Assembly: GCA_035652495.1 (NCBI GenBank)
Contig: DASRDS010000204.1
Coordinates: forward strand, 3,214-67,213
DNA from: Gemmatimonadaceae bacterium
GTDB lineage: Bacteria > Gemmatimonadota > Gemmatimonadetes > Gemmatimonadales > Gemmatimonadaceae
Direction: 5' to 3'
DNA length: 64,000 nt
Position numbers and translations under genes: made by a program. The notes below the pieces were generated by a model. It did not search any database. It saw only the letters and a program-made list of their open reading frames with translations, and was not told where the DNA came from. This document shows, in pieces, positions 50,825 through 63,334 of the stretch (its first letter is position 1; every line of letters begins with the position of its first letter).

Positions 50825-51781
50825 ATGAGACAGATCTCTGTCACAGCGGTTTCAGTCGTGTGTGGCCCAACGGCGTCAATAGAGGCGTCAGTGCTTAGTG
50901 CGTGGGGTGTTCGCACTGAAGTCATCGGTTGTGACGTGGCTACGCGGTACGCTGCCCGGAACCGTCATGTTCGCATTCTAAGTCGCTCGGCTGAGCTCGT
51001 TTTGAATGCAGCCATGGCGGCTTGGAACGAGGCGGACACTCAATCACGTGCGCAGGGGCGTCGAGTCGCGATCGTTCTCGGCGTCGAGCCAGAGGACGGC
51101 GCGGTTGTCGCCGTAGACAGTAACCAACTCGCATCCCTCGAACCGCTTCATCGGTTTCGTCACCTACCAAATGTTCCGACGGCCGCCCTCGCGATGGAAC
51201 TCGGGGCGACTGGCGCGGCATTAACGTTTGTCAACGGAAGGGTATCCGGTCTCCAGGCGATCGCGGAAGGCCGCAGGCTCATCGATTGTCACGACGCGGA
51301 CATCGTGATATGCGGTGCTGTTGATGGACGAGGCGAGCGAGTGCGTCAGAGACACGAATGTCCACATCACCGCACTGTAGGCGATTGTGCAGCAGCTGTG
51401 ATCCTCGAGGCAACCGACTTCGCTGTGGAAAGACGTGCGTTGCCAGTGCAACTTGTAAATAGTATCCATCCGTCGACGGACGATCCGCCCGTCGCCATTG
51501 TTCGGGACGGCTGGGCATCTTGTTGCGACTGCATCGCGGCGGCGGCGGCATTCGGATGGTCATTGGGTCGGGCGACAGTGTTCGGCAGTATCAGCCGCAA
51601 TCTTCATGGCCTTGGCGTCGTGGCGGCGCTCGCAGGTTGCGGTGTCGTCGCGGCGTTCATGCGCAATTTACAGTCGGCTAGCGACAGGGTCTGCGGACAT
51701 CCGCAATCGTGTGCGCTGATCGTTTCGCGCAACTGTGAAGGTCGCCCTATAGCCATCGCGCTACGTAGGGCCGCACAATGA
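50825..51781 (+). CDS. ketosynthase-like protein lacking the nucleophilic Cys (CLF-like partner)
   Basis: Aligns to the next gene: GAALTFVNGRVSGLQAIAEGRRLI vs GEVFTVYDACASGNDVIGIGLRLI, so Arg sits where the active-site Cys should be. 318 aa. The stop overlaps the next start (ATGA). Confidence 0.65.
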   Translation: MRQISVTAVSVVCGPTASIEASVLSAWGVRTEVIGCDVATRYAARNRHVRILSRSAELVLNAAMAAWNEADTQSRAQGRRVAIVLGVEPEDGAVVAVDSNQLASLEPLHRFRHLPNVPTAALAMELGATGAALTFVNGRVSGLQAIAEGRRLIDCHDADIVICGAVDGRGERVRQRHECPHHRTVGDCAAAVILEATDFAVERRALPVQLVNSIHPSTDDPPVAIVRDGWASCCDCIAAAAAFGWSLGRATVFGSISRNLHGLGVVAALAGCGVVAAFMRNLQSASDRVCGHPQSCALIVSRNCEGRPIAIALRRAAQ

Positions 51782-52923
51782 ACTGTTCTCGTGCTGTCAT
51801 CACGGGCATGAGTGCGTTGTGCGCGCTCGGTGACACGGAACAGATGGCGGCTGGCCTGCGAGCGTCGGTATGCGGAATCGGGCCTTTGACGATCTGCGAC
51901 CCGGTCTTCGGCACGGACACGGCCGCCGAGATACGTGGCTGGAACTCAAGCCTTCACGATCGCATTGGAACACTTGTTGAGCATCTTTCCAAGGGGGCCG
52001 TAAACCACTCGGGCATTGCTCAAAGCAATTCTCGGCTGGCGATAGTTGTCGCCCTCGGTCGGCAGTTCCCCATCTCCACGAACGGTAGCCCGAGGTTTAC
52101 ATTCTGGGAGCCAGGCCAGCGAGTTGCTGATGCACTCGGTTCTGTAGGCGAGGTCTTCACCGTTTATGATGCGTGTGCGTCAGGAAATGACGTGATCGGT
52201 ATTGGGCTTCGACTTATCAGGACTGGCGAGTACGATGCGGTTCTCTGCTGCGCCGCCGACTCACAGATCGCGCCGCAACCGATCGCTGAGTTCAGAAAAC
52301 TGAGCGTTCTGTCGGTACGAGACCCGGAGGGGTTACCACATCCCCGGCCGTTCGATCGGCGTCGCAACGGCTTTGTCCTCGGAGAGGGGGGCGCTGCTTT
52401 TGTAGTCGAGGACGCTGGGCACGCGAATCGTCGCGGTGCAGTCATCCTAGCGGAGGTGTCCGGCTACGGTGCTGCTTGTGATGCCTTCACACTTACTCGC
52501 GGTCATCCCGATTGCCGAGGTATCATTGAATCGATGAGCCGCGCACTTAAGGACGCCCAAATCACCTCAGCGAGTATCGATTACATCAATGCACACGGGA
52601 CCGGCACGGTCGTGAATGACGCCGCCGAGGCCGAGGCTATCAGGAAAGTGTTCGGACATACAGTCCGCCACCTACCCGTTAGCTCTACGAAAGCTGCAAC
52701 AGGACATCTACTCGCCGGCGCCGCTGCCTTGGAATTGGCGATCTGTGTGCTGGCACTGCGAGACCAATTCGTACCAGCGACCTTGAATCACGTCGACGCC
52801 GATCCAGACTGTGGCATAGATTTCGTACCTGGTGAGGCCCGCGATGCGAGGCTCACATATGCCATGTCTAACGCTTTTGGCTTCGGCGGTCATAACGCAA
52901 GCGTCATTCTTGCCCGATGCTGA
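51778..52923 (+). CDS. beta-ketoacyl-ACP synthase II-type ketosynthase
   Basis: Cys-His-His triad context: YDACASGND, INAHGTGT, STKAATGHLLAGAAA, and C-terminal SNAFGFGGHNASVIL. Confidence 0.9.
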   Translation: MNCSRAVITGMSALCALGDTEQMAAGLRASVCGIGPLTICDPVFGTDTAAEIRGWNSSLHDRIGTLVEHLSKGAVNHSGIAQSNSRLAIVVALGRQFPISTNGSPRFTFWEPGQRVADALGSVGEVFTVYDACASGNDVIGIGLRLIRTGEYDAVLCCAADSQIAPQPIAEFRKLSVLSVRDPEGLPHPRPFDRRRNGFVLGEGGAAFVVEDAGHANRRGAVILAEVSGYGAACDAFTLTRGHPDCRGIIESMSRALKDAQITSASIDYINAHGTGTVVNDAAEAEAIRKVFGHTVRHLPVSSTKAATGHLLAGAAALELAICVLALRDQFVPATLNHVDADPDCGIDFVPGEARDARLTYAMSNAFGFGGHNASVILARC

Positions 52924-52944: not shown

Positions 52945-53661
52945 ATGAAGCTTTTATTCATCTGTGTCATCCTCGTCATCGCGTCGACATCCTCTGATTT
53001 GGATACACCACTTGCAACCTTTCACATTCCCATCCAAGTCGACGACTGCGCCCTCGGGCGCTCATTAGCCGACCTCTCGCTCCTCGCTCACTTCGCCTAC
53101 GTCGTCGAGCGCGCCCCTGGCTCATGCGACAGGCGTGACAACATCGGAACAGTGATAGAAGCAGTTGCACAGACTGCGCGTCAACTGCTAGACGCTCTTA
53201 TGGCGCTAAATCCACAATATGAATGGCGAGAGATCGGTGACGTCATCGTGGTTCGCCCAAAAGATGAATGGACGCGGAAGTCACACTTTCTCAACAGGAG
53301 CGTTTCTCCGTTCGAGGCAACAACCGAGCACCTCGGCCGAGCATTTGAGATGATTTCACAGCCGTTCACGCCGCGTGGCTTTCGCGATCGAGATCGATGG
53401 CTTGTCGATTCTCGACGCGATCTCCCCACGGCTACGATCCGTTTCTCCGGTGGTACGCTGCTAGGAGCGCTCGTCGCCGTCGTTGCCGATCGACCGGATT
53501 TGTCCTGGACAATCAGCTATTGTGGGTCGGGACCATCAACCGAGAATGCGATGGTGAGTATCAGGTCGTCGTTTCGAAATATGAGCGGCTCGCGAACGGA
53601 CATCTCAATACCATTAACTGATTCAAGCGGACTTCCGCCACAATGCGACCCAGCCCGCTAG
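52945..53661 (+). CDS. exported hypothetical protein, family copy 1
   Basis: Signal peptide. ARQLLDALMALNPQYEWREIGDVIVVRP and IRFSGGTLLGALVAVV motifs are shared with 54987..55694. Confidence 0.6.
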   Translation: MKLLFICVILVIASTSSDLDTPLATFHIPIQVDDCALGRSLADLSLLAHFAYVVERAPGSCDRRDNIGTVIEAVAQTARQLLDALMALNPQYEWREIGDVIVVRPKDEWTRKSHFLNRSVSPFEATTEHLGRAFEMISQPFTPRGFRDRDRWLVDSRRDLPTATIRFSGGTLLGALVAVVADRPDLSWTISYCGSGPSTENAMVSIRSSFRNMSGSRTDISIPLTDSSGLPPQCDPAR

Positions 53662-54986: not shown

Positions 54987-55694
54987 ATGAGAGAGTTATT
55001 CGTCGCGACGCTCGCAGCCGCATGCTGCGGTGGAGTCGGGTATGCAGCTGCCAGCTCAACGGCGGATGTGAGCGTGGCAAGTTTCTCACTTCCCACAGCA
55101 CTTCCGCCGTGCGGTATCGCCACGGCGGTCGTTCGTCTTGTCCGGGCAACAGACGTGCCAATCGCAATCGAAAGGACGTCGCGATGCCAGGGCGAGAATA
55201 GCTTTCCGCGGCTGGACGTCACGGCCGCAACGCGGTTCTCGCGAGTGCCTCTTCGGACTGTTCTCGATGTGCTCGTTGCACTCGACCCGTCATACGCGTG
55301 GGCTGAGAAGAACGGCGCCATCAGCGTACGGCCCATTAGTGCGGTCCACGACATGAGCAATGTGCTCAACTCTTCTATCCCTGCGGTGTCCCTAAAGCAA
55401 ACGACGGCTGCGGCCGTACTTAGCCACCTCCTCGCCGTTCCCGTGAACGGGGAAGTCGACCAAAACGTGTTTGACTTCTCTTTTGCCGGAGGAACACTCG
55501 CGGACGCTCTGGATATCCTCATGCGAGCTGATCACGTTGTGTGGGATGCCGGCTTGATCATCCATCCAGACGCTCGCGCCGCGGACGGCGACCCGAGCTT
55601 GATGGTATCGCTTCGTACGCTTCACGGGGGTGGAATTTCGGTCGCGACCCCTGTTCGACGATTGATCACCCCAACGCAGATGCCACGTCCATAG
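54987..55694 (+). CDS. exported hypothetical protein, family copy 2
   Basis: AGGAGG upstream. LRTVLDVLVALDPSYAWAEKNGAISVRP and FSFAGGTLADALDILM parallel copy 1. Confidence 0.6.
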   Translation: MRELFVATLAAACCGGVGYAAASSTADVSVASFSLPTALPPCGIATAVVRLVRATDVPIAIERTSRCQGENSFPRLDVTAATRFSRVPLRTVLDVLVALDPSYAWAEKNGAISVRPISAVHDMSNVLNSSIPAVSLKQTTAAAVLSHLLAVPVNGEVDQNVFDFSFAGGTLADALDILMRADHVVWDAGLIIHPDARAADGDPSLMVSLRTLHGGGISVATPVRRLITPTQMPRP

Positions 55695-55943
55695 GAGATA
55701 GGCCTGTCGAGACGGCCGTGTCGGTTCGCTCTTCCGACACGACCGTCTCTGGCCACTAATCGTCCCGTTTGGCCGCTCGCCCTCAACTGCTCAAGCAAGG
55801 TGGCGACTTTTCCGCTCCCGGTGAGTCCGTTGTCGTCTTCTTGCCCCGCGCTGCGCGGTTCGGACCACAGGTGGCGTACCATTGCGTCCGCACGGAACGT
55901 CCGCCGCACGTGCTGACACACATCGGACAAGCCGACAACAACT

Positions 55944-56435
55944 TGAAGCGTACCGGGTTTGTCGGAGGGCCTATTCCGAAAGAGGATGTGGGCCATGCAC
56001 GACCGAGCAAGTATTCTTCTGAAGTCCGCGAGCGCTTCGTCCGGCTGGCGCAGGAGCACACGGTGGAGCAGGTCTCGCATTGGGCCGCGGTCGCGGCCAT
56101 CGCTCCGAAGGCAGGCTGTACCGTTGAGACGCTCCGGCGGTGGGTGCGCCAGGCCGAGCGAGACGCCGGCCAGCGCGGCGGCCTGACCACCGACGAGCGC
56201 GCGGAGCTGAAACGACTGCAAGGCGAGTCGTGGAGCTGAAACCGCGAACGAGATTCTCAAGAAGGCGGCGGCGTTTTTCGCCCAGGCGGAGCTCGACCGC
56301 CGCGGGAAGTAGTGGTGGGCTTCATCAATGACCACCGCGAGACGTATGGGGGTCGAGTCGAGCTGCCGCGTCGTGCCGATCGCCCCATCGACCTATTACC
56401 GGCATCGGGCCCGCCAGCTCGATCCGACGACCTGG
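55944..56435 (+). mobile_element. decayed, 3'-truncated IS3-family element
   Basis: IR-like TGAAGCGTACCGGG at 55944. OrfA-like VGHARPSKYSSEVRERFVRLAQEH..GCTVETLRRWVRQAERDAGQRGGLTTDERAELKRL, then pieces in other frames (ANEILKKAAAFFAQAELDRRGK; VVGFINDHRETYG; CRVVPIAPSTYYRHRARQLDP). The rve core is missing. Confidence 0.7.
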
Positions 56436-56652
56436 CTGCGACTGCCTCTGCGAACCCTCGGGTGCTTACCGGGATTTCGTGTTGCCTTTTCCTTGCCCTT
56501 TGCTGACACTCAAACGCGGATCGGCGCGGCAAACGCCGGCATCAGATTGATTCTTTTGATCGTCGACCGAACACGATTTTTCCGAGGTCAATGCGCGATC
56601 CGTCGACTCGATGCAATCGCTCGCAATACGCGGCAAGGCGGTCGTTTTTCGT

Positions 56653-56697
56653 CTGTTAACCGGAGGGTTGTTGGTTCGAGTCCAGCCTGAGGAGCCA
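56653..56697 (+). repeat. tRNA-Asn(GUU) 3' half, copy C (att-like, opposite orientation)
   Basis: CTGTTAACCGGAGGGTTGTTGGTTCGAGTCCAGCCTGAGGAGCCA, with one mismatch to copies A and B (in the T-stem). No 5' half upstream. Confidence 0.8.
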
Positions 56698-56734
56698 ATT
56701 GTTCAAGGTATGTTCCGGTCACATGGGTGACGGT

Positions 56735-56986
56735 TTATTCCGAGCACATAGGTAACACTTTCGAGCCGAAGGGATTCTCGATCGGCTCGACTCGTCTCAC
56801 CTCGTCGTCGAAGTAGCCCAAATCGTAGTCCATGAAGGTCACGAGCCAGACGTGCTCGCCGACCTGCGTCACGCCGACGTTCTGGCCGGCGAAGACGTGA
56901 CTCAGATTGATCTTGCGGCCGTGGAAGCAGATTCGGCCGCAGTGCGTGACGGTGACCTGTAGCGTGGACGGCAGAAGGAAGGGCAA
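56735..56986 (-). mobile_element. IS481-like transposase C-terminal remnant
   Basis: VTHCGRICFHGRKINLSHVFAGQNVGVTQVGEHVWLVTFMDYDLGYFDDEVRRVEPIENPFGSKVLPMCSE. Near-identical C-terminus to 27099..27334, in the opposite orientation. Confidence 0.7.
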
Positions 56987-57348
56987 TGTGCCGATCATTA
57001 GCGATGTCTCCGATCGGCACGTACCGCACCCCAGGATCGAAGCTGCGTGATGAACGTCCTGGGTACCCGATCTTCGAGGTCGATCTCGACACAACCGATC
57101 CAGCGAGACCTCACCTAAACCCTGCGCTGCGACGACTGTTGGCACTCTACCGAGGTGCGTTAGCGACTCGGCTGAAAAAGCTAGTTATCGCCGTCGCACC
57201 TGCGTCTCCGATGTGCCGCCACGCCAGCCAATCGTTCGCGGACGCTGTGACCGTCATGTTCTGAACCAGAGGCTCGGCTCGACTTGCCGTTAATAGCGCA
57301 ATTCCTATGGGGCGCACACGAGTGTGCCTCCACTGCCTAAACGCCAGC

Positions 57349-59547
57349 TTACGAAATCTTGCGACCTCGAGAAACGTGCGGCAGGGACTCGTTTGTCTGG
57401 ACACCATGTTCGAGCGGTAACTGCGGCTCAGCTACTCGCCGTAGCCACGCCGGTGCATTGCGAAGAACAATTCGAAGCAACTCGCCGGGTTCGATCTTTC
57501 GAAGACCTTCCGCATGTAGCCGCGACCCATAAGCCATAGAACTGGCCGCAGTCCTGCGCAGAACGACGAACAAGCGCTCGACGAGTTCTGGCCTCGTCTT
57601 CAGCAACTTCGCGAGCGCCGGACGCGGGTACATCAAAAGATAAGAATTTGTTGCGATGGCGTCGGATCTATTCCAGAGAAACCGTAGCGGAGGTGCATCC
57701 CCATGCCCTCGGCCCATGTACGTGCAGACAAACAATGGAATGCCCCGGCGATCCTGTCGGTACCAGGGGTTCCTCTCTCTGGCCAAAGTACCGTGCGACA
57801 CTCCTTTGGACTTTCCCGCATCGAGGTACTCCATCAGTTTCGGGTACCGTTTCTTGATCTCACCCTCAGGTAGATCGCAATCGATTACGCATAACTGCGG
57901 GCACACACGAGGGTATCCATCTCGCTGGCGTTCAATAACATCATCACGCAGCGTTTTGACCTTTGGCAAAATGGGTCGCAGCGCCTCTTTAGGTATGCCA
58001 AGTCGAGACGCCAACGAGCGCTCGAGGATGAAGAAATCGTTTGCGCCGGTCGCAATTCCGCGAGACACAAAGAACAAATCACCGAGCCGAACGACTTCCG
58101 AGTCTTCGCTGTCGGAGACTCTCGGAATGGTCCACCTGGTGTCCGACGCGAGTTCATCAACGGAGACAGTCTGGGTAAACTCTGGACGGCTGAGAGTTCC
58201 TCCCGACGTCATCGTTACCATGTCACCCGAGGTCGGCGATGTATTTTGAAACAAGACAACCGCGGGCAGCACTCTCGCATTCTCGAACTGTTGGGCCGCA
58301 TAGTCGAATCTGTGCACCCGCACCAGTCTGACCCGATGCGTGAGGTAGCGCCGCACTGCTTTTCCGTATGTCGTCTGCATGAATTCCGAAGGGATCAACC
58401 ACGCGGCGACCGCGCCATCAGCCATCCATTGATGGCTTAACAACATAAAATACACATAGAGACCGGCCCGAGCATCAATACGGGTTCCCATCATCACGGA
58501 CGCTCGTTCGCGCAACTCCATCTTGTACTTTGGTTCAATCGCCTGGTGTCTGAGATAAGGCGGATTTGCCAAGATCAAGTTCCGCGGCGGCAGTCTCTCC
58601 ATGTGCAGGTAGTCGCCGAACATTACGTCCATACCACGATGAGACCACCGCCAGCGCGCCGCCTCTACCTGCCTCGGACTGATATCAATACCGATGGACG
58701 ACGATAGCCGGTCTTGGGGAACTAGCTGAAGTAGGGCACCATAAAACGCACCTGTTCCAACAGCGGGATCGCCGAAGTCAATCTTCTTCGCGTGGCCGTC
58801 GAGCAATTTGACCGCGGTATCAGCTATCTCTCGCGCCAACTCCGGAGGGGTCAGATGCACTTCAGGTTCCGTCAGCGTACCTGCCGCATTACCCGCACCG
58901 CTTGGACCAACTCGAACTTCGGATCGACCGACGCGGTCGTAGTTACGCACAGACTCGTGCAGGTGAGCGCATAATAGCTCGCACAGTTCCAATCTGCGCT
59001 GTTTCGGCAGTTCAACTAACCAGTTCCAGTCAAGCTTCTCGTTGGTAGCTTGAAAGAACGTTTGGCGAAGTAATTCGCTGAATTCACGCGGCCGAGTCGG
59101 TCGCTTCTTCCTAGCCGACTTGACAGGAATATGCGTCAACATCGTTCCGTCTGGCAGCGGGACCCTGAAATGCCAGTCGAAAGCCTGAATCCGCGTGAGC
59201 AGTTGCTCGCTGAACTCAGCCGACAATCCGTCGTACAGAGTGATGTGGAACTCACTGGCTGGATAGTCGGGCTTGTGTTCCAAAAGGACCAAGTCATCGG
59301 CGCGGCACCGGATGTACACGGTTCGGTGCGGTCTACCGTTCCTGTCACTAAGAAACGAGCCAGGCTCGATAAGATCGATGTGGTTGACAGGGGTATTGAG
59401 GTATTCGTGTGGAATCGACAGTTTCGAAAAGTATCTCACGGTCACGTGCGGCTTAGACCCAGAACCCGGCTCACACACTTTTCGCACGAGTTCCAAGTGT
59501 GGTCCAACGACCGTGTCGGTGATGTACAGTACTGAAACGCTGGCCAC
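57349..59547 (-). CDS. 2H-phosphoesterase-like N-domain fused to a gamma-class N6-adenine DNA methyltransferase with TRD
   Basis: 732 aa. Two H-h-T-h motifs (KPHVTVRY, EFHITLYD) about 67 aa apart in the first about 150 aa. MTase motif I FGDPAVGTGAF, motif IV LILANPPYLRH. C-terminal target-recognition-like region (LGDLFFVSRGIATGANDFFIL). Confidence 0.8.
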   Translation of the reverse strand: MASVSVLYITDTVVGPHLELVRKVCEPGSGSKPHVTVRYFSKLSIPHEYLNTPVNHIDLIEPGSFLSDRNGRPHRTVYIRCRADDLVLLEHKPDYPASEFHITLYDGLSAEFSEQLLTRIQAFDWHFRVPLPDGTMLTHIPVKSARKKRPTRPREFSELLRQTFFQATNEKLDWNWLVELPKQRRLELCELLCAHLHESVRNYDRVGRSEVRVGPSGAGNAAGTLTEPEVHLTPPELAREIADTAVKLLDGHAKKIDFGDPAVGTGAFYGALLQLVPQDRLSSSIGIDISPRQVEAARWRWSHRGMDVMFGDYLHMERLPPRNLILANPPYLRHQAIEPKYKMELRERASVMMGTRIDARAGLYVYFMLLSHQWMADGAVAAWLIPSEFMQTTYGKAVRRYLTHRVRLVRVHRFDYAAQQFENARVLPAVVLFQNTSPTSGDMVTMTSGGTLSRPEFTQTVSVDELASDTRWTIPRVSDSEDSEVVRLGDLFFVSRGIATGANDFFILERSLASRLGIPKEALRPILPKVKTLRDDVIERQRDGYPRVCPQLCVIDCDLPEGEIKKRYPKLMEYLDAGKSKGVSHGTLARERNPWYRQDRRGIPLFVCTYMGRGHGDAPPLRFLWNRSDAIATNSYLLMYPRPALAKLLKTRPELVERLFVVLRRTAASSMAYGSRLHAEGLRKIEPGELLRIVLRNAPAWLRRVAEPQLPLEHGVQTNESLPHVSRGRKIS

Positions 59548-60534
59548 TTATACCACCAACTGCCTCAGTAGGCGGAGCTCTGAATCCGTCTCGTCGATGA
59601 TACGGAGCAACTCGAACATTGCATCACCGTACTCGTTAGCTTGCGTGAACATCTGTCGCCGCTGAGCCTTGTCTTTGAAGTGTGCCTCCAGCTCGGATGT
59701 TGGTAAGCCGGTCAACTCAAGAAACGCAGAGTATTTCTCCAAAAGGTAGCCCACTGCGTTTGATGCAGCAGGTACTCGTGATGGTATGCCTTCTAGTCTT
59801 TGCCTCGGAGTTAAACGCGTGAGCGAAATCACTTGTTCTTGACTTACCGGCGCCGGCAGACTACCGAGCGCAGCTATGGTCGCGAAACATGTCGTCATGC
59901 GACTATATTTGAGCTTGAAATTTCTTACCTTTTGCTTGATCTTACGAATCTCGTCACCTGTCCTCAAGTTACGTTTGTTTTCGTAATTCAAGAGAAGCGT
60001 CTTCCAGTAGCGGCAAATGTCATTCAACAAGAACGTGGCCTGAAAATTACTGGGATGATCCGGGAAATCCTTAAAATATGAGTCGATGATTTCGCGGATT
60101 ATTGAGTCATATGTGTTATGTCCGTACAAACACGAGCTCTCCAGCAAAAGAAGCATTCGAGCCGTGAAATAATTCATCTGGTCGTCTGTCGGCCCACCTA
60201 GGTGTTTCAGTATTTCGTTCGAATGGAGGAAAACGAGATACTCGCAGTCATTTGAGAATTGAGGGAATCCTAGTCCCTCAACAATGTCGATGATCTTACC
60301 GAAAATGTTCAGCTCGCGAGTCCGTGGATTAGCGAGTGCAGACTTGTCACCAGAGACTAAGAAGAACATGTCAATGTCGGAGTGCTGACTGGCTTCGAGA
60401 CGACCGTAGGATCCGGCGCTAAATATCGTCAGTTCGGGAAAATCCTTGAGGCCAGGCAAATCCGCGAAAGCCCGCCTCAACTGATCAAGTCGGTCTTGCG
60501 AAAATCTCACACGGGCGTCCGCTGTTGTCGACAT
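59548..60534 (-). CDS. Pol-beta-superfamily nucleotidyltransferase with helical C-terminal domain
   Basis: FSAGSYGRLEASQHSDIDMFFLV (G-S-x10-D-x-D). Its TAA stop directly abuts the GTG start of the downstream methyltransferase fusion. Confidence 0.8.
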   Translation of the reverse strand: MSTTADARVRFSQDRLDQLRRAFADLPGLKDFPELTIFSAGSYGRLEASQHSDIDMFFLVSGDKSALANPRTRELNIFGKIIDIVEGLGFPQFSNDCEYLVFLHSNEILKHLGGPTDDQMNYFTARMLLLLESSCLYGHNTYDSIIREIIDSYFKDFPDHPSNFQATFLLNDICRYWKTLLLNYENKRNLRTGDEIRKIKQKVRNFKLKYSRMTTCFATIAALGSLPAPVSQEQVISLTRLTPRQRLEGIPSRVPAASNAVGYLLEKYSAFLELTGLPTSELEAHFKDKAQRRQMFTQANEYGDAMFELLRIIDETDSELRLLRQLVV

Positions 60535-60728
60535 GTCCTAGTTCCGCGCCAGGGATGACGATGGCACGTCAGCTGACATTTTACTCGAACTGTCGACGTG
60601 AGCGCCGAGACCATCTGGACCAACGGATGTCCTTTGCGTGCAATCATTTGACGGATGGCCTGAAACATCGACGTGCGGCTTGCTGAATTGGGTGTTTAGC
60701 AGGTGCTACGATTCATACGGAGAACGAA

Positions 60729-61670
60729 TTGGCAGATAGATTCCAAGTCCTCTCATTGGATGGCGGCGGCGCGAGAGGGTTATTCGCAGCCGCAGTGCTG
60801 GCTGCCGTCGAACGGGACCTGAATATCAAGCTCGTAGATCACTTCGACCTAATCGCCGGGACGTCGACAGGTGGCATTATTGCCATTGGTCTCGGCCTCG
60901 GCTTGACACCGCGCGAAATGGTCGAATTCTATGTCAAGCATTCGCCGCAAGTGTTTCGCAACCGGCTTTATACGAGGTCATTTCAGCAATGGATTTATCG
61001 GAAATACTCCGCGCATCCACTTGAGTCCGCGCTGAAGGAGATGTTTGGAGAGCGACCCTTTGGCGAGAGCACTAAGCGGTTGGTGATTCCCAGCTATGAT
61101 CTGGGAACCGATGACGTGTACGTATTTCGCACAGCTCATGACGAACGCTTCAAGCGTGACTACAAGTCACCGGCGTGGCATGTCGCAATGGCGACATCTG
61201 CTGCACCAACATATTTTCCGTCTTTCAGGCGTATCGACCGTCTTCGGTTGATTGATGGCGGAATCTGGGCTAACAACCCGGCGATGGTTGGATTGGTCGA
61301 GTCATTCGGTACGCTGAAATCGGACCTGAGCCACATTCACATCTTAAGTATCGGCACTTACGAGAGCATCTCACACCGGCGTCGCCTGTTGAATAATGGA
61401 GGCAGACTGGTTTGGGCACGGACCGTACCAGACGTCATTCTGAAGGCCGGAAGCGTTGGAATCAACAATCAAGTCCGATTTCTGATAGGGGATAGGTTTG
61501 TCCGACTCAATCCAAAGGTTGCGGCGAACGAGGTCTCGCTTGACGAGGCGGACAGTGCCGACGATCTCATCGGTCGAGCTAGTTATTACAGTCGGCGAAA
61601 CATGCCAGAAATCTCATCGCGCTTCATGCAGCACCGCGCTGCCACTTTCATTCCGGTTTACAAACCCTAG
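60729..61670 (+). CDS. patatin-like phospholipase
   Basis: LSLDGGGARG (oxyanion hole), AGTSTGG (nucleophile Ser), LIDGGIWANNP (catalytic Asp). TTG start with GGAG upstream. 313 aa. Confidence 0.9.
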   Translation: MADRFQVLSLDGGGARGLFAAAVLAAVERDLNIKLVDHFDLIAGTSTGGIIAIGLGLGLTPREMVEFYVKHSPQVFRNRLYTRSFQQWIYRKYSAHPLESALKEMFGERPFGESTKRLVIPSYDLGTDDVYVFRTAHDERFKRDYKSPAWHVAMATSAAPTYFPSFRRIDRLRLIDGGIWANNPAMVGLVESFGTLKSDLSHIHILSIGTYESISHRRRLLNNGGRLVWARTVPDVILKAGSVGINNQVRFLIGDRFVRLNPKVAANEVSLDEADSADDLIGRASYYSRRNMPEISSRFMQHRAATFIPVYKP

Positions 61671-62200
61671 AAATTGCGGCACCTTGCAATCGCACTTATG
61701 GATTATTCGGGTCCGACTCAATTCAACCGCTTAAGCCCCAGGCGTCGTGACGGTCGTCTGAATCAGCGGACAGCACTACGGGATCTCGCCTCAAGTCACA
61801 TTTCGGTACTCTGACCGTCTAGGGGTGAACTAGGAGGTCACAGCCTGCGCGGTTCCCACGCAGATCCATTCAGGGGTGACGTGTCATCGATAACTGCCGG
61901 TGCGCCGGCACCGCGTCTCGGCAAAACGGCGCCGGCGCGCTAACTGCCGACCCTGCGCCGCGGCGCCGCGTCCAGGGCGCCCCGAGCGCAGTCGAGGGAC
62001 GCCGCGTCAGCGGGCCTGCCCCTGGACGCGGCGAGCCCGGCGCCACAGAATCTCGTGCGCGACGGCGCCCACGAAGCGGCGACACGGATGAGCGAGAAAT
62101 AAGAGACGAGCGGCACCCCGTTCGATGCAGCAGCCCAATCAGAAAAACGACGGCAGAGACCTTCCGCCCGGCAACACGGCCAAGCCCCCACCAGTCTCAT

Positions 62201-62515
62201 TTATTTGTTCGCGTTCTTCAGCGCAGCGTATGTCGTCGTCTCCTCACTGGTCATGCACCGATCGCACAGTTCTCGGCTGCGCTTGAATGCGCGCAGCGCG
62301 TCGTCCTCGTGGCCTTCCTTGGCGAATGCGTACCCGAGCATCGCGTGCAGTCGGCCATCGTTCGGTAGCTCTCTTAGGGCAATCTGCAGCTGACGCTCGG
62401 CGTCGGCCCAGTGTCCTGTTTCTAACAGCAAGCTCGCCAGCGCGACTTGCGCATCGGAGGAGTCCGGAGCCAGATCCACTGCCGTCCGATACGCTGCGAG
62501 TGCCCCCGCTCGATT
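62201..62515 (-). pseudogene. TPR-repeat protein C-terminal fragment
   Basis: AGALAAYRTAVDLAPDSSDAQVALASLLLETGHWADAERQLQIALRELPNDGRLHAMLGYAFAKEGHEDDALRAFKRS. No plausible start, and an upstream in-frame stop at 62576-62578. Confidence 0.55.
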
Positions 62516-62880
62516 CGGCCGTGAAGAACACGGCGTTTCCAGACATCTCCTCGCCGGATTGAGTCGATCGTCTGACTACGTTGCCGGCTTCATCTCGCTC
62601 TTCACAGATCACGCCAGCGCACCACACCAGTCGACGGTCGCTCTGCAGGACCCCGTCCTCACGTTCGACGAGGCGCACGCGGCGTCTCAAGCCGTCGTAG
62701 AGATACTCGGAGCGGTGCGTCCCGACATTCACCGCGACGAGCTGATTGCGGGCGTCCCACTCGAAGCTGCGGCTGCCGTCGGTCGTGAGATTGCCATTCG
62801 CGTCAATGGGAGCACTTACGTGTGGCTTTGCAGTCGATAGTGTCTTACGGGACGGGTCGTTTGACTCAGCCGTTGCGGCG
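62480..62880 (-). pseudogene. RHS/YD-repeat protein internal fragment
   Basis: IDANGNLTTDGSRSFEWDARNQLVAVNVGTHRSEYLYDGLRRRVRLVE...LVWCAGVICEERDEAGNVVRR...FFTAESSGGTRSVSDGSG matches the YD-repeat consensus. No N-terminal shell or C-terminal toxin. The junction with the TPR fragment is uncertain. Confidence 0.6.
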
Positions 62881-62884
62881 TCGA

Positions 62885-63334
62885 TCATCCTTGTGGGTGC
62901 ACCATGCGTGCGCCGACCGTAATACTCGCGGTGCATGTCGCAGTGCGAGAGCCATTCTTCACCGATCCCTGCAGTGAGTACGTACCGCCTTGAGCATAAG
63001 AATGCCGTACGGCCTTCTCGATGCGGTACTTCGAAGGTCGACCAGAGACGATACTCGGTCGAGGACGCGATTCGTTTCCCGACCGACCGTCGCCGAGGCT
63101 CCAGGAGATGTCGATGCTATCGCCGTCTGGTGGACCGAAATCTTCCACTTCAATGTGGAATTCGATGTCCAAAGCAGTCGCGCCTGACCACGCCGTGCAG
63201 TGAGGAGCTAACAAGCGAACACTTTCCTTTGCGTCTAGACGCTGGTTGTCGCGATCTCCAGGGATTGGAAACACGCACGCCTGAGCGCTCGCAAAGGCCA
63301 GCAGTGCTGCCATGATGATGACACCAATCTTCAT
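62885..63334 (-). CDS. small exported PKD-domain protein
   Basis: Signal MKIGVIIMAALLAFASAQA. ISWSLGDGRSG...HSYAQGGTYSLQGSVKNGSRTATCTASITV matches the PKD signature. Confidence 0.65.
   Translation of the reverse strand: MKIGVIIMAALLAFASAQACVFPIPGDRDNQRLDAKESVRLLAPHCTAWSGATALDIEFHIEVEDFGPPDGDSIDISWSLGDGRSGNESRPRPSIVSGRPSKYRIEKAVRHSYAQGGTYSLQGSVKNGSRTATCTASITVGARMVHPQG

Follow-up and report, generated by a model that had tools for sequence, protein, structure and literature searches.

The locus described here is best read against several known systems. In XamI-type restriction-modification (R-M) operons, a gene for a protein of 320 to 330 amino acids (aa) lies immediately upstream of the methyltransferase gene. 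Members of the 2H phosphoesterase superfamily (such as LigT, YjcG, plant CPDase, and Usb1) share one fold and two H-x-T-x motifs; 2H enzymes are metal independent, need the 2'-OH of their substrate, and serve in nature to remove 2'-5' oligoadenylate and, in the form of Acb1, cyclic oligonucleotide signals. Acb1 is made by phages as a free-standing protein that breaks down the signals of the host, and the erasers of the oligoadenylate synthetase (OAS)-RNase L pathway are themselves 2H enzymes. In type I cyclic-oligonucleotide-based antiphage signaling systems (CBASS), a CapV-type lipase gene precedes the nucleotidyltransferase gene in capV-cdn operons. Here we analyze a 64,000-nucleotide (nt) stretch of DNA from a Gemmatimonadaceae bacterium (contig DASRDS010000204.1), called the window throughout, in whose coordinates the positions of its open reading frames (ORFs) are given. 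Its minus strand carries an ORF at 57349..59547 (GTG start, 732 aa) whose product had been described, in a first-pass annotation made from the sequence, as an unusual, partnerless fusion of a 2H phosphoesterase domain to a DNA methyltransferase. What is notable, we found, is not a lone odd fusion but a widespread and unannotated cassette, made up of a nucleotidyltransferase (NTase) gene and a 2H gene, that took over an R-M operon.

The fusion itself is not unusual. Searched against 5.8 billion proteins, the ORF product had homologues in more than 120 clusters (90% identity), with ~97% query coverage at 47 to 58% identity; when 1.84 billion representatives were scanned with a profile, 484 of them (50% identity level) contained the 2H domain, 359 at E ≤1e-10. 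The carriers belong to at least six phyla (Gemmatimonadota, Acidobacteriota, Beta- and "Delta"-proteobacteria, Chloroflexota, Bacteroidota, and Actinomycetota), and two cultured strains, Duganella radicis KCTC 22382 and Cellulomonas cellasea NBRC 3753, are among them.

Motifs, alignments, and a structural model together identify the product as a 2H phosphoesterase domain followed by a helical connector and a complete gamma-class N6-adenine methyltransferase (Table 1). Two 2H motifs had been placed within the first ~150 residues, and translation verified both, HVTV at aa 34 to 37 (59437-59448) and HITL at aa 101 to 104 (59236-59247). Among 120 full-length homologues of 47 to 58% identity, the set to which all residue counts below refer, H101 and T103 are present without exception, T36 occurs in 118, and H34 occurs in 117, the other three having gaps at this position. 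H34 and H101 are also the sole invariant columns of a 150-sequence alignment reaching down to ~20% identity, and both HxTx motifs occur in nearly all of the best 150 of the 484 2H-domain representatives. An AlphaFold2 model of aa 1 to 215, based on a 150-sequence alignment, reached a mean predicted local distance difference test score (pLDDT) of 92.3 and a predicted template modeling score (pTM) of 0.89. The 13 best Foldseek matches of this model in the PDB were all 2H enzymes, the next ones having a probability of ≤0.16. Acb1 came first (7t27 and 7t26; E = 4e-4 and 7e-4; template modeling score, ~0.5 on the target; probability, 1.00), and the other 2H matches were Bacillus subtilis YjcG, an Arabidopsis ADP-ribose 1'',2''-cyclic phosphodiesterase, and human and yeast Usb1. 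Among predicted viral structures, the best Foldseek matches were Acb1s and proteins of the 2'-5' RNA ligase superfamily. Judged by its motifs and its modeled fold, the N-terminal domain is a genuine 2H phosphoesterase with intact catalytic motifs.

Pfam assigned this domain through its relatives and not through the window sequence. Residues 1 to 230 of the window protein, which lies below the Pfam thresholds of the 2H superfamily, gave no Pfam match even at E ≤10, and NCBIfam and PADLOC scans of the N terminus were empty too, PADLOC holding no model for the 2H domain. Half of the 34 relatives that were compared with Pfam did match superfamily models: 18 matched 2_5_RNA_ligase2 (best E value, 3.4e-10), 17 matched 2H-SAK, 12 matched LigT_PEase, and 2 matched Acb1. 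The match to Acb1 itself was not significant at the sequence level (profile against PDB, E = 0.78), though both HxT motifs align; the Pfam Acb1 model (PF23474) was reached at E = 0.0097 by those 2 of the 34 relatives and not by the window sequence. On these comparisons the domain falls outside the Acb1 family, to which it is closest in structure only. It resembles Acb1 in being compact (~150 aa, the two histidines being separated by 67 residues), and it is shorter than LigT; unlike that stand-alone phage protein, it is encoded by the host, fused to a methyltransferase, and tied to an NTase. Because 2H chemistry needs a 2'-OH, its substrate would be RNA or a ribonucleotide compound, not DNA. 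We found neither a methyltransferase fusion nor an obligate NTase partner described for the 2H superfamily in the literature searched, and no description of the 2H-methyltransferase fusion or of the NTase-2H cassette in Pfam, NCBIfam, or PADLOC; an earlier mention in a survey is possible. This agrees with the first-pass annotation, which had named no precedent.

The helical linker proposed earlier was reproduced in the model as helices at aa 158 to 168, 174 to 178, and 182 to 199, with block pLDDT values of ~92 to 98 over aa 151 to 200. Its helical part is also found in stand-alone 2H proteins of ~200 aa (profile positions 1 to 198 matched). Taken as a whole, the connector is the least conserved region of the protein, with a pairwise identity of 0.28.

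The remainder of the protein has every part of a gamma-class methyltransferase, as had been proposed. S-adenosylmethionine motif I (FGDPAVGTGAF) lies at aa 258 to 268 (58744-58776) and motif IV (NPPY) at aa 328 to 331 (58555-58566), both read from the translation; G259, P261, G264, G266, and N328 to P330 are present in 120 of the 120 homologues, and D260 and Y331 are present in 119. Pfam Eco57I matched aa 324 to 419, the PADLOC MTase_II model (Type II methyltransferase model PDLC03328) matched at 1.9e-102 over aa 232 to 691, and the solved structures matched by this moiety were M.BseCI and CamA. The C-terminal region is annotated as M_Eco57I_C (PF22837) in the homologues, and the order of motif I, motif IV, and a C-terminal target-recognition domain assigns the enzyme to the gamma class. 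Mean pairwise identity is 0.61 in the catalytic domain, 0.53 in the 2H domain, and 0.51 in the C-terminal region; the conservation of the last suggests that the target is shared, whereas R-M families usually show diversified specificities.

The closest methyltransferases without a 2H domain (41 to 48% identity) are ordinary Type II enzymes that align from aa ~233 and have no N-terminal domain. Homologues of the methyltransferase on plasmids likewise align from aa ~233, at 35 to 40% identity, and on the Psychrobacter plasmid pA15BP1 a XamI-family endonuclease gene precedes the methyltransferase gene with a 1-bp gap. Since the nearest relatives lack an N-terminal domain, the 2H domain and linker are an addition of ~230 aa. 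The first-pass annotation had instead derived the protein from a Type IIG enzyme in which the 2H domain had taken the place of a fused PD-(D/E)xK nuclease. We rejected this origin, since the N terminus is a 2H fold and the relatives are Type II methyltransferases with a separate XamI-family endonuclease; PADLOC Type IIG models aligned to the methyltransferase core alone, at E values of 1e-9 or weaker. In a rough neighbor-joining tree of the methyltransferase moiety, drawn without support values, the XamI R-M clade stood apart from the main 2H clade, and three actinobacterial 2H forms fell outside both. One methyltransferase of the 2H clade, in a Dehalococcoidia metagenome-assembled genome (locus L011, 2918-5280), has lost both the 2H domain and the NTase; as judged by eye, two small transmembrane ORFs are convergent to it, and the 180-aa one looks SLATT-like.

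Evidence for a partner came from gene neighborhoods. Loci were collected from GTDB genomes, metagenomes, and exact-protein look-ups and scored by tblastn; they were gathered with the full-length alignment, with a recovery biased toward the methyltransferase motifs. An NTase homologue is adjacent to the methyltransferase gene in all 33 loci in which the methyltransferase carries a 2H domain (the window included; ~29 are non-redundant), and in none of them is a XamI-family endonuclease gene found upstream. Conversely, an adjacent NTase was found in none of 65 loci whose methyltransferase (41 to 48% identity) has no detected 2H domain, and 49 of these have an upstream XamI-family endonuclease gene; several of the 16 loci with neither a 2H domain nor an endonuclease end at a contig edge. 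The cassette and the restriction endonuclease of its sister operons are mutually exclusive, and the NTase sits in the slot held by the endonuclease in related R-M operons. The first-pass annotation was thus right that no restriction gene adjoins the methyltransferase in the window and wrong that the enzyme has no partner. In the window, the TAA stop codon of the NTase gene is followed directly by the GTG start codon of the 2H-methyltransferase gene, and from this junction we predict that the two genes are translationally coupled. The NTase gene is co-directional and abutting in 28 of the 33 loci; in the other 5 (L008 and L028 to L031) a more divergent NTase is divergently transcribed. The resemblance to a XamI-type R-M operon lies in the methyltransferase (38 to 48% identical over aa 233 to 697) and in the 320- to 330-aa gene immediately upstream of it; the differences are that the upstream gene here encodes a non-homologous NTase and that the methyltransferase has gained ~230 N-terminal residues. 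Having no endonuclease, the system lacks the defining component of R-M.

Table 1. Features of the cassette and its surroundings in the window
Feature	Position	Strand	Remarks and evidence
2H phosphoesterase domain	59098..59547	-	aa 1-150; motifs, conservation, AlphaFold2 model, Foldseek, Pfam matches of relatives
Connector	58858..59097	-	aa 151-230; helices at ~aa 158-199, then a low-conservation Gly/Ala-rich spacer
Gamma-class N6-adenine DNA methyltransferase catalytic domain	58228..58857	-	aa 231-440; Pfam Eco57I, PADLOC MTase_II
C-terminal target-recognition region (aa 441-700), variable tail, and stop codon	57349..58227	-	M_Eco57I_C on homologues
NTase partner gene	59548..60534	-	328 aa; Pol-beta fold; G-S...D-x-D motif at 60370-60414
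NTase-patatin intergenic region	60535..60728	no strand	194 bp, divergent; ORF map and sequence
Candidate effector gene, patatin-like phospholipase of the CBASS CapV type	60729..61670	+	313 aa; Pfam, NCBIfam, PADLOC

Sequence comparison identified the upstream partner as an NTase of the Pol-beta fold. In the family alignment G41, S42, D53, D55, and D96 are invariant, and 10 of 11 family members matched NTP_transf_2 and 9 of 11 matched Polbeta, with scattered matches to SidM_N, DUF294, and GlnE; the window NTase itself gave weak matches to Pfam NTP_transf_2 and NCBIfam GlnD. The best PDB profile match was the Legionella AMPylase DrrA/SidM (E = 7.5e-4, in the motif region only), further matches being minimal NTases and aminoglycoside NTases, and structures of cGAS/DncV-like nucleotidyltransferases (CD-NTases) reached just E = 0.3. 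The motif region also matched minimal-NTase models (PADLOC PDC-S09 and PDB 1wot). A 100% identical NTase entry, named from a Gemmatimonadaceae metagenome-assembled genome, is present in the protein collection; an exact-sequence look-up of the 732-aa 2H-methyltransferase yielded no record. We considered and rejected two other identities for this protein, namely, a disguised XamI endonuclease (hhalign probability, 0.3%) and, at the sequence level, a CD-NTase, there being no match to any PADLOC Cyclase model and hhalign probabilities below 0.4% against two CD-NTases; as a control, these two CD-NTases matched 31 and 41 of the Cyclase models. Taken together, the conserved motifs suggest that the NTase, the 2H domain, and the methyltransferase are all apparently active enzymes.

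Among the PADLOC models, that of component A of the candidate defense system PDC-M70 is distantly homologous to the window NTase, with an alignment that spans nearly the full length (91.5 bits, E = 1.5e-26); a true M70A, from Mesorhizobium, scores 487 bits. We rejected an assignment of the whole system to PDC-M70, since its partner differs: M70B, a protein of 249 aa named "sugar phosphate isomerase/epimerase" in RefSeq, is absent here, and the 2H-methyltransferase matches no M70B model. On plasmids we found no match to the 2H domain, and the NTases there are distant and either solo or of the PDC-M70 type. One of them, apparently solo, is on the 4.5-kb Escherichia coli ColE1-like plasmid pISHS7_5, and another, on a Mesorhizobium sp. 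AR02 plasmid (L019, 4028-5733), is paired with an M70B (349 bits).

The methyltransferase is only one of several partners of the 2H domain. Among the best 150 2H-domain representatives, 55 are at least 650 aa long and methyltransferase fused, and 71 are stand-alone proteins of 170 to 280 aa. An NTase homologue lies directly before a stand-alone 206-aa 2H protein (L103; E = 1e-99) and before a 495-aa protein of a third type (L104; E = 1e-100), here called 2H-X. Because the NTase also precedes stand-alone 2H proteins, the NTase-2H pair is the core of the cassette. Another stand-alone 2H protein (P0005) has before it a gene for a 336-aa protein with no Pfam match, and in the 1,235-aa protein P0251 the 2H domain is joined to an MmeI-type methyltransferase. 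The 2H-X proteins, ~490 aa long (P0223, at L104 1004-2491, and its relatives P0247, P0267, and P0196), have a middle region without an assigned family and a C-terminal extension of ~290 aa, the last ~90 residues of which match only UvrC GIY-YIG domains in the PDB (E = 0.05 to 1); this alignment is weak but spans the motif positions, among which those of Tyr and Arg show incomplete conservation. With methyltransferases and a GIY-YIG-like extension as its partners, the 2H clade appears to have acquired DNA-acting domains repeatedly. At the Duganella radicis locus (L008, 6250-7736), the NTase (37% identity) is followed by a 151-aa stand-alone 2H protein (Pfam 2H-SAK, 6.4e-19); such a small 2H protein follows the NTase in L030 and L031 as well, giving two 2H domains per locus.

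A search of 50,697 phage records gave no match to the cassette, and the single match among IMG/VR viral contigs was without a 2H domain. With no match in phages and none bearing the 2H domain in viral contigs, the cassette is best regarded as host encoded.

Beyond the NTase gene, and overlooked in the first-pass annotation, the window carries a gene for a patatin-like phospholipase (Table 1), whose product matched Pfam Patatin (4.7e-31), the PADLOC phospholipase effector model (4.7e-100), and the NCBIfam equivalog CBASS_lipase ("CBASS cGAMP-activated phospholipase"; 265 bits, with a cutoff of 200). A lipase of this CapV type adjoins the cassette in 4 of the 33 loci. In Cellulomonas cellasea (L014) its gene directly follows the methyltransferase gene (CBASS_lipase, 254 bits against the same cutoff of 200), and in L027 and L032 it immediately precedes the NTase gene in the same orientation; the lipases of these two loci share 57% identity with that of the window, and the L027 protein matches the PADLOC phospholipase effector at 6.8e-102. 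None of these four loci has a canonical CD-NTase, and the closest plasmid relatives of the window lipase (55% and 43% identity) adjoin genuine CD-NTases, the two that served above as controls. Other candidate effectors accompany the cassette elsewhere. Three NTase clusters bear an N-terminal TIR domain, and the two such loci inspected (L015 and L016) consist of a TIR-NTase and a 2H-methyltransferase; a SLATT gene in L004 overlaps the stop codon of the methyltransferase gene. In two actinobacterial loci (L013, 4939-6929, and L014, 4740-6784), two overlapping ORFs of 442/457 and 221/224 aa lie directly upstream of the NTase. The larger ORF of L013 has prenyltransferase/squalene-cyclase-like repeats and a sub-threshold match to the SMODS-associated 4TM effector (E = 0.0015), and the larger ORF of L014 has a Peptidase_M23 domain.

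The locus thus shares with type I CBASS an adjacent CapV-type lipase gene and, in L027 and L032, the lipase-then-NTase order of capV-cdn operons; if the locus is a signaling system, it would also share the activation of the lipase by the NTase product. It differs from type I CBASS in having an NTase that is no CD-NTase by sequence, in having the lipase in just 4 of 33 loci, and in its 2H-methyltransferase, which CBASS lacks. By analogy, the pairing of an NTase with a phosphodiesterase that removes its product would recall the signal-clearing enzymes of nucleotide immunity, namely, the 2'-5' phosphodiesterases of the OAS-RNase L pathway (for example, AKAP7 and viral NS2/VP3) and the ring nucleases of type III CRISPR systems; those have no counterpart of an eraser fused to a DNA methyltransferase.

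The two-gene cassette is mobile; its flanks differ among loci, and toxin-antitoxin genes or transposases are frequent in them. In the window, it lies where the GC content drops from ~0.66 to 0.54; the values are 0.535 to 0.539 over 58001-62000, compared with 0.63 to 0.70 in the first 26 kb, which is consistent with horizontal acquisition of the NTase, 2H-methyltransferase, and patatin genes. The methyltransferase gene is followed directly by insertion sequence (IS) remnants (55769-57145). They comprise an IS3-type OrfA-like ORF (55769-56239, plus strand; judged by eye, with no NCBIfam match), an Rfam ALIL frameshift pseudoknot of the IS3 type (56270-56387, plus strand; 89 bits), and an integrase-core-like ORF fragment (56735-57145, minus strand; judged by eye). 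No tRNA gene was found within the 64-kb window.

The NTase-patatin intergenic region presumably holds the promoters of both genes; a consensus scan of it found no sigma-70-like site. Two GTCGAC sites, which we take to be XamI/SalI sites, lie within 70 bp of each other at 60527-60532 and 60592-60597, the former overlapping the NTase start codon. We rejected a methylation-sensitive promoter switch at this point, since GTCGAC is absent from the neighborhood of the NTase start in every other locus, L052 having one copy, 239 nt upstream. Palindromic hexamers showed no notable enrichment upstream of the NTase genes, and the GTCGAC pair in the window is probably due to chance.

Apart from the cassette, the large ORFs between 47.8 and 64 kb of the window encode an 856-aa protein without an assigned family and, as a group, an acyl carrier protein (ACP) and two ketosynthase-like proteins. 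The ACP-like ORF (50368-50817) is followed by ketosynthase-like ORFs at 50759-51781 (weak score) and 51778-52923 (~315 bits to FabF, below its cutoff). This group looks like a ketosynthase/chain-length factor pair from a small polyketide or fatty acid cluster, apparently unrelated to the cassette. Two ORFs of ~235 aa (52945-53661 and 54987-55694, plus strand), without an NCBIfam match, look like paralogues by eye and share the stretches LDxLxALxPxYxW...VRP and F(S/A)GGTL..AL. Beside the patatin gene, an ORF of 230 aa (62244-62936, minus strand) contains the sequence YLYDGLRRRV, which is RHS/YD-repeat-like by eye; it has no NCBIfam match and may be the remnant of a toxin cassette.

We propose that the cassette probably represents an immune module of a new kind in bacteria. 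More specifically, and tentatively, with confidence falling a little short of even, we infer a nucleotide-signaling defense module with a built-in eraser and a self-marking methyltransferase. In this model the product of the NTase would be built from ribonucleotides and would most likely be a diffusible alarm signal, either an oligonucleotide or a cyclic nucleotide, and the 2H domain would erase that product, or sense and erase it, keeping the system silent in uninfected cells, a role modeled on that of ring nucleases, 2'-5' phosphodiesterases, and Acb1. The methyltransferase would mark host DNA or tether the eraser to it, such that unmethylated incoming DNA would tip the balance toward signal build-up. 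Killing or growth arrest would be brought about by variable effectors, a CapV-type lipase in the window and TIR or SLATT proteins elsewhere; where a locus has no effector, the NTase reaction itself may kill or arrest the cell. The first-pass annotation had suggested a coupling of DNA methylation to the processing of cyclic or 2'-5' nucleotides. Such a coupling is plausible within an NTase-driven system of this kind and not as a property of one autonomous bifunctional enzyme. A still more specific version, which we consider possible but doubtful, is that immunity here derives directly from R-M: the nuclease would have been swapped for a signal synthase, methylation status would be read through a second messenger, the Acb1-like eraser on the methyltransferase would set the threshold, and effectors borrowed from CBASS, Thoeris-like, and SLATT systems would kill.

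Several observations weigh against a signaling module. The NTase is not detectably a CD-NTase at the sequence level, whether by the PADLOC Cyclase models or by hhalign against the two CD-NTases, and its sequence bears a weak resemblance to protein AMPylators and uridylyltransferases (DrrA, GlnD, and DUF294) and to minimal NTases. A recognizable effector is present in just ~7 of the 33 loci, and all-against-all clustering of the flanking ORFs revealed no other neighbor that recurs, the patatin lipase excepted. In most genomes, two genes must therefore suffice, which fits a toxin/antidote pair as well as it fits signal logic. The fusion of TIR to the NTase could point to a sensing role for the NTase in place of signal synthesis. 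The stand-alone 2H versions show that the core function does not require the methyltransferase, and the part given to methylation is hypothetical.

Because most loci have no effector and the NTase is closer to macromolecule-modifying NTases, a toxin/antidote system is a serious rival, although on balance we think it somewhat unlikely. Here the NTase would be a toxin that nucleotidylates RNA 3' ends or a protein, the 2H domain would trim the product, and the methyltransferase would be an R-M add-on for addiction or self-marking. There is precedent for the chemistry, as the MenT and AbiEii NTases add nucleotides to tRNA and Usb1 trims 3' ends, leaving a 2',3'-cyclic phosphate. The two-gene form of most loci, without a separate effector, would be explained directly, and so would the tight translational coupling, the frequent position of the cassette beside toxin-antitoxin genes, and the placing of the NTase in the slot of a toxic restriction enzyme; moreover, Usb1 is among the significant structural neighbors of the 2H domain, and the likeness of the NTase to DrrA, GlnD, and minimal NTases exceeds its likeness to cyclases. 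What this account leaves unexplained is the recurrent CapV-type lipase, a member of a nucleotide-activated effector family, and the SLATT association, and the NTase has no detectable similarity to the PADLOC AbiEii or MenT-type models. The same NTase affinities, in particular the matches of its motif region to PDC-S09, PDB 1wot, and protein AMPylators, bear on an arrangement like that of HEPN-MNT systems, in which the NTase would nucleotidylate (for example, AMPylate) the 2H-methyltransferase as a brake and the 2H domain would be an RNA-cleaving toxin. An NTase gene upstream of a metal-independent, histidine-based RNA phosphotransferase does mirror MNT-HEPN operons. We nevertheless judge this arrangement very unlikely: the NTase, with its ~330 aa and its large conserved C-terminal domain, is far bigger than the minimal NTases; known 2H enzymes are, to our knowledge, end-processing or small-molecule phosphodiesterases and not general endoribonucleases; and the associations with lipase, TIR, and SLATT proteins would go unexplained.

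The choice of C-terminal partners raises another possibility, which appears distinctly unlikely to us, namely, that the 2H domain is chiefly a ligand sensor after the fashion of CARF domains, which bind their ligand and cleave it slowly, and that it switches on the DNA-acting domain fused to it, so that the fusion protein would be the effector of the NTase signal. These partners do act on DNA (the XamI-type and MmeI-type methyltransferases and the GIY-YIG-like extension), and conservation of the 2H domain extends to the connector helices. It would, however, be strange for a methyltransferase to serve as an immune effector, the GIY-YIG match does not reach significance, and stand-alone 2H proteins, which have no output domain, make up about half of the family. 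The account given in the first-pass annotation, an autonomous bifunctional enzyme that arose from a Type IIG ancestor by exchange of its nuclease for a 2H domain and that works without a partner, agrees with the intactness of both domains, with their constant fusion in this clade, and with the lack of an adjacent endonuclease gene. It is highly improbable in view of the nearest methyltransferases, which are Type II, without an N-terminal domain and with a separate XamI-family endonuclease, the NTase homologue adjacent in 33 of 33 loci, and the pairing with an NTase even of 2H proteins without a methyltransferase. We regard as equally improbable a housekeeping role outside conflict, in which the NTase, a 2H ligase or cyclic phosphodiesterase, and an RNA m6A methyltransferase would repair or modify RNA. 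NTase, 2H, and methyltransferase activities do occur together in RNA-repair systems, such as Pnkp/Hen1, and methyltransferases with an NPPY motif can act on RNA, but the patchy distribution across phyla, the variable flanks, and the association with IS elements and toxin-antitoxin genes argue otherwise, as do the TaqI/Eco57I-type DNA target-recognition domain and the 41 to 48% identity to R-M methyltransferases, and lipase, TIR, and SLATT partners do not fit such a role.

Whatever the mechanism, several hundred proteins now called "adenine-specific DNA methyltransferase" or "hypothetical" can be given a domain annotation and linked to an obligate partner, and the two cultured carrier strains make the cassette testable. 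If the cassette is an immune system, it would join two main branches of prokaryotic defense, epigenetic self-marking and nucleotide second-messenger signaling, in one operon. It would then also represent a second lineage of NTases, unrelated in sequence to the CD-NTases, that can be wired to CapV, TIR, and SLATT effectors, and the 2H fold of Acb1, a tool of phages against CBASS signals, would at the same time be a regulator built into the defenses of their hosts.

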